Shown piece after piece: positions 48,001 to 51,000 of a stretch of 64,000 nt of DNA. Where the stretch lies: assembly GCF_003334335.1 (NCBI RefSeq), contig NZ_QOWQ01000001.1; one strand, written 5' to 3'. Position numbers: made by a program. The stretch comes from Escherichia coli. GTDB taxonomy: Bacteria; Pseudomonadota; Gammaproteobacteria; Enterobacterales; Enterobacteriaceae. Each line of letters starts with the position of its first letter. Positions within the stretch are counted from its first letter, which is position 1.

Positions 48001-51000
48001 ACATAAAAATCAGGAATAAGTTGTGCAAGTCTATCATCATCAACTTGATCCATAATCTCAAACTTATTAACTTTCTTTGATGTTAAATGGGCTGTGTCAT
48101 AGTTTTCAATCCATGTGTATTCAATATTTCGCCGTATTGATTTACTTTCTCTGTTACCTTGTTGCCAGGTTCCACTCAACGCAACAGTTCCTGTTTTATT
48201 TTTTTTGTTATACATAAAGTCGATGGTAAGATTTGCTCGTCCCTGGTCATTAAAAATTACCCAATTTGCAGTGCATGTTTCGTTATATATCATTTTTTCT
48301 GCAGTGTAAGAATAGACAGTGAAGAGAATAAACCCACTGATAAAAACTAAAATAAATAATAAGTTTTTTTTATAATCAATCACGATTAACCTCACGGTAA
48401 GACAGGGTTAAACAGTTTGCCACTTCATGTTGGTTATAGTTTTTATTGCATGCCATAACAATCATCCCCGGTGAGGATTTTGCAAGAGGGAAGTATAACC
48501 ACGGATGTTTTTTACAGTTAATCCCCGAATCCAGTATCCGTGTTTTATATTTATCGAACTCTTTCAACCCATCAATTGTATCTTCTGTTACATTAAAATG
48601 GCAGCCATTAATTTCCGCAACAGTCTTGTAATCCTTGAAAAATGGCTTCGGTTGATTATTATTCCATAGCCAATATGCAGAATATGCGCCTATGACAAAT
48701 GCGCTCAACATAATTAGATGACTTTTTATATTTTTGAGGATTTTGTTATTGAAATTCTTTGCGCCACCAATGCTCTCTTTGTATCCCGCATTAACTTTTA
48801 TGGCAGGTGGGGCATTGTGTGTATGTGCGTCTGTTGACGAGTTTATTACATGATTTTGTATGTTAATGTCATTATGGATCTTGAATCCTCTTCTCGGCAC
48901 GGTTGCAATTAGCGAGTGGGTAGTATCACCAACAGCGCGAAATCCGCGTCTGATAATGGATATGTTCTGATATAACGTGTTAGTAGGCACACGCATACCT
49001 TCTTCTTCCCAGACTCTGGTGAAAAAATCTTGTTGTGCAACCACATCAGGAAAAGCTTCAAGTAGAAGTGATAAACATCGACTGGCTGGCGTTGTCAGAA
49101 CGACGTTAAGATCGGCGTTATGTACCGATATTAATTTTCGGTGCTCAGGCCAGAACTCGATATTATCGTTAATAATCCAGTACATACGTCAATAAACACT
49201 AAATCAATCGAAATGGAGATCACATAGTTTGCTAAGTATATTGGTATTTACGGCATAAATATATATTAATTTTATATTTATCATGATGATTGAAATGAGG
49301 CTTTAATGTTGCAACGTAAAACTTTACGTAAATTAACATGGTTAACATTTATGCCACTATTGTTTGTAAATTCATATTTCGTAATGCTTCTGAATTTTTC
49401 GTGTGATGGTTTTAAATACTATGGTGTTTACTCTTGAGGGGACGGCCTATTTATAAAATACGGACATTTCAATAAATGCCCGTATAAACAGAGTATGATT
49501 CTGGCTGGTCGTTGAGTATCAATGTTGGACCGAATGTGAACGAATAAATAATTCGTTTATTTTACCACCCATTCTCTTTTCGATTCGTTGCTTGTACGCG
49601 TAGATGCTACGGATATCCATATCCAGAACTTCAGCAATCTGATATGGATTATAACCAGAAACCATATACCCCATTATGGTGAATTCCATCTGAGTTAATG
49701 TGTTACCTCTGGTAAATGATAAATAACGACCAATAAATAGTTGTCTGATCTTTTCATTGGCAACATCAAGACCATCATCATTATATATGACAGCAGATAT
49801 TGCTGAGTTGTGTTTTCGCCAGTAATTAGCTAACGATTGCATATTGCGGTCGCTGACTAAAACAATCCCCATGTCAGTACTTGCAAGATAGTCAATCCAG
49901 TCTTTTTCAAGGAATAGACGTAAAAAACTTACTGAAAAATCGACAAAAATATATCCGCTTAATCTCGCATTGTGGTTTTTTGTTAAGATACCTTCTACCA
50001 CACCACGATTAAAATATGAACTTTCTTCGGGCCACATACAAAAACACGAGTTTGCGCAATACTGCAAACGCGGTGACTCTTCTGGCATTATTTGGCAATG
50101 CATTGAGCAACTATTGCATGTAAGACTTTTATAACGACTACAAAGCCCCATGTTAAGAACCTCCCTATCCGTATATAATTGCATAATTTCATTGGTTATT
50201 GATGATGTCAATACACCATGATTTTGTAATTTTGCCGGGAAAAATTGCGATTAATCTGTATTTGCTATAATTCTGAGTAAGGCATTTAAAAATGCATTTC
50301 TCGTTATCAAATATGATTATGTTTCACTGATTTAATCTTGCATGGTTGAGAGCGGTCCAGATAACTATCTCATGGTATAAGAATATCTATATCGCAAATT
50401 GTTTTTGAATGACCAGAAGATATCTTGCGAATCTAAGTTATGCATCTTAAATAGTCTTATTTAAGATGTTCAGATCTCTTTGTGTGTTTAACTAACTGAT
50501 AATACTAGGATATGACGAGAGAAGTGATAGGGTGGAATAATAACAAATGAATATTATGAAAAATGGAATGGTTCAAAATTGTAGCAATTTTGAACCATCC
50601 ACAACTGATATTAGCTAAAGAACATTACCGATACGCACAGGATACCCACGATCAGCGTAATCAGATTTCCGATGGAACGCCAGGGTTTAAGCGCCGGGAT
50701 GAGATACGTTGACAGCGTAGGCATGATGAAAAGTATCATGGCAATGAGCGGGCCGCTGATCGCGTAAATCATCGAAATCGCGTTCGGGTTAATGCAACAA
50801 ACAATGAAGGTAATCAGCGATACCAACATAATTGATAGTGCGCGGTTAAATGCACGACTTTTCTTTACACCAACCTGCTGTAGTGTTGTTTTGACGACCT
50901 CTGTGGCACCTTCAATAACGCCAAAGTACGTACCCAGGAATGATTTCGACATCGCAACTACTGCGACAATAATCCCGGAAATTGACAACCATGCTGGGGC

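Follow-up and report, generated by a model that had tools for sequence, protein, structure and literature searches.

Four of the seven cysteines of YqeH, a LuxR-type regulator of Escherichia coli, probably coordinate a single metal centre as a tetrathiolate, and the site that they would form is part of a pseudo-receiver domain rather than a separate appended finger. The gene was examined in a stretch of 64,000 nucleotides (NCBI RefSeq assembly GCF_003334335.1, contig NZ_QOWQ01000001.1), referred to here as the window, and the reading draws on the conservation of C12, C15, C19 and C32 together with a predicted structure. YqeH belongs to the EcpR/MatA family of transcription factors; it resembles a response regulator but is an atypical, orphan one, made up of a pseudo-receiver followed by a LuxR/GerE helix-turn-helix (HTH) domain. 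The yqeH gene is known already; the conserved four-cysteine (Cys4) pseudo-receiver appears to be undescribed. The gene and the segment under study are:

49519..50151, minus strand: yqeH coding sequence, 210 codons and stop (intact open reading frame and translation).
50038..50142, minus strand: Cys-dense segment, residues 4-38, which holds all seven cysteines (translation).
50056..50118, minus strand: Cys4 core, C12-x2-C15-x3-C19-x12-C32, a putative tetrathiolate metal site (conservation).

The sequence-only reading that preceded this analysis gave no strand; the open reading frame runs on the minus strand, and its translation, a protein of 210 aa with the N-terminus MGLCSRYKSLTCNSCSMHCQIMPEESPRLQYCANSCFCMWPEESSYF, matches the sequence quoted there exactly. 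The gene had been called yqeH with a LuxR-type HTH, and this was borne out by the RefSeq identity (a copy on an E. coli chromosome, annotated yqeH, WP_001305805.1, matches the DNA at 100 % identity) and by a Pfam GerE match over residues 151-195. A match to yqeH was found in 4110 of 5426 complete E. coli genomes, and the identical protein is encoded by a genome that shares only 96.6 % identity across the 1.1-kb region. The YqeH protein of Bacillus subtilis is an unrelated GTPase.

The cysteines are at positions 4, 12, 15, 19, 32, 36 and 38, and, as the sequence-only reading had indicated, they are all close to the N-terminus: all seven lie within the first 38 residues, and the other 172 contain none. 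Were they placed at random in 210 residues, all seven would fall inside a 35-residue span with p = 7.5e-5. Poor conservation among orthologues had been named as the observation that would refute the suggested metal or redox sensing, and the opposite was found: C12, C15, C19, C32 and C36 are invariant in all nine full-length orthologues (from Escherichia and Citrobacter, and from E. fergusonii-like and Shimwellia-like sources, sharing 49-83 % identity), C38 is missing from only one of the nine, and C4 is confined to Escherichia. C36 and C38 were gained in the YqeH clade, to which they are specific, and C4 in Escherichia.

A search for related loci using the close alignment returned only Escherichia and Citrobacter, and the family profile, used in a further homologue search by word index, yielded almost nothing beyond close relatives. 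A search of 1.84 billion representatives with a profile built from YqeH residues 1-148 recovered 118 proteins at E <= 1e-3, mostly enterobacterial and of about 200 aa. Long eukaryote-like Cys-rich matches (P0069, P0113 and others), consisting of many short stretches, were rejected as spurious and compositional. The resulting family alignment comprises 46 sequences sharing 22-82 % identity with YqeH, and cysteine occupies all four core positions, scored strictly by alignment column, in 31 of them. The set was enlarged to 50 sequences and re-aligned by adding MatA of E. coli K-12, a second Klebsiella paralogue, an Enterobacter tandem paralogue and a plasmid-borne orf3; here the segment contains four or more cysteines in 38 sequences, two or fewer in 12, and exactly three in none. 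In a neighbour-joining tree built from residues 45-200, the Cys-poor members fall at about nine separate places, each beside Cys4 members. Cys4 is thus the ancestral as well as the majority state in the EcpR_N subfamily and has been followed by repeated complete loss. Bimodal cysteine counts and scattered complete losses are the pattern expected of four residues that form one ligand set, and the recurrence of the four-Cys core across EcpR_N proteins at 22-40 % identity supports metal binding as the likely purpose of the segment.

As a conserved feature, therefore, the Cys-dense N-terminus stands for the four core cysteines, which are found family-wide, and not for the other three of the seven, which are not conserved across the family. 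Likewise, the arrangement had been described as unusual for the family, which is correct for LuxR/GerE regulators at large but not within EcpR_N, where Cys4 is the majority state.

The cysteines could instead act without a metal, as a thiol/disulfide switch or simply as structural thiols, and their high density (seven in 38 residues) would suit such a role, as would the clade-specific C4, C36 and C38, which could form alternative disulfides. We nevertheless consider it improbable, as four invariant cysteines that have fixed short spacings and are lost as a set look like a shared ligand set and not like a redox pair, and the E. coli cytoplasm is reducing.

The remainder of the protein places the cysteine segment in its structural setting, for which the relevant features are:

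49567..49701, minus strand: LuxR/GerE-type HTH, residues 151-195 (Pfam GerE, PF00196, E 6.6e-5).
49732..50019, minus strand: remaining part of the receiver-like domain (EcpR_N), residues 45-140.
49939..49941, minus strand: codon for D71, aligned by hhalign with D59, the phospho-acceptor of NarL.

A Pfam scan of the whole of YqeH found only the HTH, using a local copy of Pfam that does not hold the EcpR_N model, and gave no match to the Response_reg profile. The EcpR_N assignment (PF27348) comes from precomputed annotation, both of representatives of the YqeH cluster that share 99 % identity with the window protein and of all its homologues. A search of the PDB with the family profile likewise produced only HTH matches, to the DNA-binding domains of EvgA, FixJ and ComA. 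The top NCBIfam match was the EcpR equivalog NF047921 (E 1.7e-20, residues 31-202), with a score of 73.8 bits set against a cut-off of 300, and YqeH is thus a paralogue and not EcpR. Though YqeH is far below the equivalog cut-off, EcpR/MatA proteins share with it the EcpR_N plus GerE architecture, homology over YqeH residues 31-202, the W-P and ANYW motifs and the HTH, and Cys4 is retained in both YqeH and the EcpR of Klebsiella.

YqeH has the CheY-like (beta-alpha)5 fold. When the family was aligned by hhalign with NarL, EvgA, RcsB and CsgD, the match had a probability of 97.7 % (E 2.5e-12) and extended through the HTH, with residues 62-197 of YqeH aligned to residues 50-201 of NarL; residues 1-61, where the acidic pair of the beta1-alpha1 loop of a receiver would be expected, were left with no counterpart at the sequence level. 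D71, which is conserved in at least 90 % of the family, lies on D59 of NarL, and N124 is in the column of the conserved receiver lysine (in the NarL motif LLK), which we take to be K109. Because the alignment begins at residue 62 and puts D71 on D59, residues 1-61 replace the first half of the receiver (beta1-alpha1-beta2-alpha2). An assignment of D101 as the equivalent of the phospho-acceptor, with WPEES supplying the acidic pair of beta1, was dropped on account of the same placement of D71. There is no histidine kinase gene adjacent to yqeH, its neighbours being yqeG, which encodes a transporter, and yqeI, which encodes a winged-helix regulator. YqeH is of the same kind as CsgD and VpsT, in which an atypical receiver is joined to a LuxR-type HTH and which work independently of a cognate kinase; CsgD, as aligned here, has no Cys4 motif, whereas YqeH carries one in the first half of its receiver-like domain.

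A model built with AlphaFold2 (AF2) from the 46-sequence alignment had a mean predicted local distance difference test score (pLDDT) of 88.9 and a predicted template-modelling score of 0.86, with residues 11-50 at a pLDDT of 82-87 and the helices across residues 154-203 at 95-98. An earlier run with 18 close sequences, in which residues 1-48 were below 50, was set aside for the deeper alignment. In the model, C12, C15 and C19 are in and around the loop of a beta-hairpin (10-12/20-22), C32 is in a helix (29-35), and C38 is carried by a strand (37-40). We propose that occupancy by a metal would keep the first half of the pseudo-receiver in shape, and that occupancy or redox state may alter the conformation of the pseudo-receiver or its dimerisation, and through this the binding of DNA by the HTH.

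Several observations weigh against a metal site. The MatA/EcpR of E. coli is without the four-Cys motif, that of strain K-12 (L020 6747-7337) having one cysteine left and having lost Cys4 through a 12-residue deletion; since MatA/EcpR is an active regulator in E. coli, the module must be dispensable for the basic activity of the family. Some E. coli alleles of yqeH (P0011, P0014 and P0015) are frameshifted near codon 47, and in these the Cys-rich N-terminus would not be joined to the rest of YqeH. The search of the N-terminus against zinc-ribbon and metal-binding profiles that had been suggested from the sequence gave no support, as 30 N-terminal segments (residues 5-58 of YqeH and their equivalents), scanned singly with zinc families considered at E <= 0.1, produced no Pfam zinc-ribbon, zinc-finger or Fe-S match; nor did a search with the N-terminal profile find a sequence relative in the PDB. 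Zinc ribbons usually have two CxxC knuckles, which the C-x2-C-x3-C spacing does not match. The comparison also relies on a shallow family alignment, of 46-50 sequences, and on a rough neighbour-joining tree. A literature search found no metal site reported for the EcpR_N family (PF27348), and no discussion of the cysteines; a paper on YqeH in avian pathogenic E. coli (APEC) mentions neither the cysteines nor the domains.

With respect to which metal the tetrathiolate would hold, the spacing resembles both Fe-S and zinc motifs and so does not identify it. C-x2-C-x3-C followed by a distal cysteine is the [4Fe-4S] motif of the molybdopterin oxidoreductases, which the predicted strand-CxxCxxxC-strand hairpin resembles, and the structural zinc of horse-liver alcohol dehydrogenase is held by a similar contiguous C-x2-C-x2-C-x7-C. 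We tentatively and slightly favour zinc, in a structural or thiol-oxidisable site, over Fe-S because Zn-Cys4 sites are commoner and because there is no detectable Fe-S signature. NrdR offers a parallel, as a bacterial transcription factor with four N-terminal cysteines that plausibly bind a structural zinc, though its cysteines form two CxxC knuckles in a separate ribbon, whereas those of YqeH, spaced C-x2-C-x3-C-x12-C, lie inside the pseudo-receiver.

The other candidate, an Fe-S cluster that responds to O2, NO or iron, would make the Cys4 EcpR_N proteins redox or iron sensors, as FNR is, and would couple genes for fimbriae and motility to oxygen or iron status. Four conserved cysteines lost all-or-none, the molybdopterin oxidoreductase-like arrangement, the additional nearby cysteines of the YqeH clade (C36 and C38), and the repeated loss of the module from otherwise conserved members, which fits a regulatory add-on better than a folding core, would all agree with this. 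FNR-like Fe-S factors are also alike in having an N-terminal Cys cluster before a regulatory domain and a C-terminal HTH, a layout that could gate dimerisation, but FNR belongs to the CRP family, is unrelated to YqeH in sequence and fold, and differs in the spacing of its cysteines. Against a cluster, neither Molybdop_Fe4S4 nor any other Fe-S family was matched by the 30 segments, the similar zinc pattern of alcohol dehydrogenase makes the spacing non-discriminating, and no link of E. coli YqeH or EcpR to Fe-S was found in the literature search. We regard an Fe-S cluster as possible but rather unlikely.

All of this presupposes that the cysteines are translated, and the start of YqeH is placed differently in many database entries. 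The signals upstream of the gene are:

50160..50166, minus strand: Shine-Dalgarno sequence AGGGAGG, separated by an 8-nt spacer from the ATG at 50151 (sequence reading).
50183..50211, minus strand: sigma-70-like promoter match, TTGACA-17-(TG)AATTAT (10/12 matches in a scan; a match to the consensus only).

If translation began at M39, the Cys cluster and the PEES repeat considered below would be chance features of a leader outside the functional protein. Starts at M39 or later are found in many entries (P0010, P0020-P0029), including the 195-aa protein of C. koseri and several truncated E. coli entries that are annotated from M39, and the start of the plasmid paralogue has likewise been shortened in RefSeq. 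However, no purine-rich Shine-Dalgarno sequence was seen on inspection upstream of the M39 codon, while M1 has a strong one: AGGGAGG and the ATG are kept in three other Escherichia loci and in seven Citrobacter loci, one of the seven varying in having AGGGGGG (G for A). The ratio of non-synonymous to synonymous substitution rates (dN/dS) over codons 1-46 is about 0.06 against Escherichia sp. E1V33 and E. whittamii, similar to that of the rest of yqeH, and 0.08-0.11 in the two Citrobacter comparisons in which it could be estimated, synonymous sites being saturated in most Citrobacter loci. Codons 1-46 are under purifying selection, and the Cys codons alternate between TGC and TGT with the residue retained. 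The conserved initiation signals, the low dN/dS and the silent changes at the Cys codons together indicate that the Cys-rich segment is coding and constrained. With N-terminal conservation extending to 22 % identity and a confident AF2 fold for residues 11-50, a start at M39 is already contradicted by the conservation, selection and structural data and is very improbable.

Given the position of the promoter match, an in-frame ATG further upstream (50182-50184) would fall outside the mRNA. The spacer between yqeG and yqeH contains a peak found with RpoS holoenzyme by genomic systematic evolution of ligands by exponential enrichment (PMC5493296). Directly after the yqeG stop codon there is a terminator-like hairpin, with a 16-bp stem followed by a T-run (window 50566-50600, minus strand), which is consistent with yqeH having its own promoter.

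The same N-terminal segment had been described as containing a duplicated (M/W)PEES motif, and the two copies are:

50074..50085, minus strand: first PEES, residues 23-26, in a clade-specific loop that is not conserved in the family.
50020..50034, minus strand: W40-P41-E42-E43-S44, an instance of the family motif W-P-[DE]-x-[NS], located where predicted strand 37-40 ends.

The string does occur twice, as MPEES (PEES at 23-26) and WPEES (41-44), but it is not a true repeat. As an exact 4-mer with copies 18 residues apart, of a kind that appears only 1.6 % of the time when the first 47 residues are shuffled, it might be thought a functional internal repeat, such as a pair of equivalent sites for binding or modification. 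Yet shuffling the whole protein gives a repeated 4-mer 16 % of the time, the Ser codons of the copies differ (TCA and AGT), and the first copy is not conserved even within Escherichia, being PEKS in Escherichia sp. E1V33, a divergent E. coli and E. whittamii (L006-L008) as well as in Citrobacter. At this position other orthologues have PEQS or, further out, PVIS or PEVS, and it is unconserved family-wide. The second copy is accounted for by the family-wide W-P motif, W40 and P41 being conserved in at least 90 % of the 46-sequence alignment. With a variable first copy and a second that belongs to the family motif, the repeat is coincidental, and a functional duplication is most unlikely. An allele in E. 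coli strain 120 from cattle (L022 420-1052), also represented by P0003, has a P41T change that gives WTEES and, as it alters the nearly invariant W40-P41 pair, may be a hypomorphic variant.

In the frameshifted alleles P0011, P0014 and P0015, gene callers begin at an out-of-frame TTG (MLNALPNNARRV...) and rejoin the yqeH frame. The window has an overlapping open reading frame at 50009-50110 (minus strand) that corresponds to the TTG-start frame of these alleles.

The yqeH gene lies between yqeG and yqeI at the border of the decayed ETT2 island, which starts near a tRNA-Gly gene, and has a GC content of 37.3 % compared with 45.9 % for the window. Decay of the island was located at approximately 29259-37500 and 37500-47000 of the window by correspondence with NZ_CP025842.1, identity having been checked over 1.1 kb only. 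Genes of the EscU, YscQ and SpaN families are either partial or frameshifted, a frameshift also disrupts a lytic transglycosylase gene, a ygeK-like LuxR regulator gene is interrupted by an internal stop codon, and uacT is cut short by IS1. Citrobacter lacks ETT2 yet retains yqeG next to yqeH, which suggests that yqeH is older than, or independent of, the ETT2 island; yqeF is found further upstream there, and about 2.5 kb downstream there is a chaperone-usher fimbrial operon. In Citrobacter amalonaticus (L011 1-12444), an rcnA-like Ni/Co efflux gene comes next after yqeH and is followed by the fimbrial operon, whose chaperone and usher genes look split in that assembly.

Members of the EcpR_N family typically adjoin fimbrial operons. 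The Shimwellia-like homologue, 49 % identical to YqeH, is directly upstream of one, and the EcpR of Klebsiella (L016 7001-7618), with Cys4 present, is directly upstream of ecpABCDE, a second Klebsiella EcpR_N paralogue downstream of ecpE also having Cys4. This ties the family to fimbrial operons, and the YqeH of E. coli, found instead at the island border, looks like an ETT2-side orphan. In Enterobacter, tandem Cys4 paralogues lie beside genes for ATP-binding cassette, membrane-fusion and outer-membrane-factor proteins in a cluster resembling type I secretion. A plasmid-borne paralogue of the YqeH clade with the full six-Cys motif (CMSCPSQCELKPNASLRVSFCQDYCFCTWPEGS; L029 4001-4630, NZ_LT985263.1) is present on about 105 PLSDB plasmids and lies just downstream of ISCR1-blaCTX-M-9 on many plasmids of Klebsiella, Enterobacter and Escherichia. 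The RefSeq start of this paralogue (L029 4040) removes the first cysteine, and relatives of it are named 'Orf3/QacEdelta1 fusion protein' in AFDB.

APEC from which yqeH has been deleted is less motile, forms less biofilm, adheres less well and is less virulent (PMC9014576; PMC11068852), and YqeH affects espE3 positively (PMC11068852). EcpR/MatA-type regulators control a widespread adhesin, and no input signal for YqeH or EcpR/MatA was found in the literature search. For such an input, the conserved four-Cys site within the regulatory domain is a tangible candidate that can be mutated, and the Cys-less MatA of E. coli and the Cys4-bearing EcpR of Klebsiella offer a natural comparison. The late starts annotated in many database entries remove the cysteines and hide the motif.

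If the site is a plain structural zinc, the finding is a modest improvement in annotation. A more far-reaching proposal, which we put forward as speculative and doubtful, is that the Cys4 EcpR_N proteins may be an undescribed class of metal-cofactored pseudo-receivers in which a redox-, oxygen- or iron-labile centre, for instance an Fe-S cluster or an oxidisable zinc-thiolate site, takes over from phosphorylation in switching the LuxR-type HTH; the class would include YqeH, the EcpR of Klebsiella, the tandem pairs of Enterobacter and the Kluyvera-type orf3 that accompanies blaCTX-M-9 on plasmids. Were this so, the MatA-like lineages of E. coli would have become signal-blind by losing the site, and fimbriae, motility and ETT2-linked virulence genes of the Enterobacteriaceae would be tied to redox or iron status.

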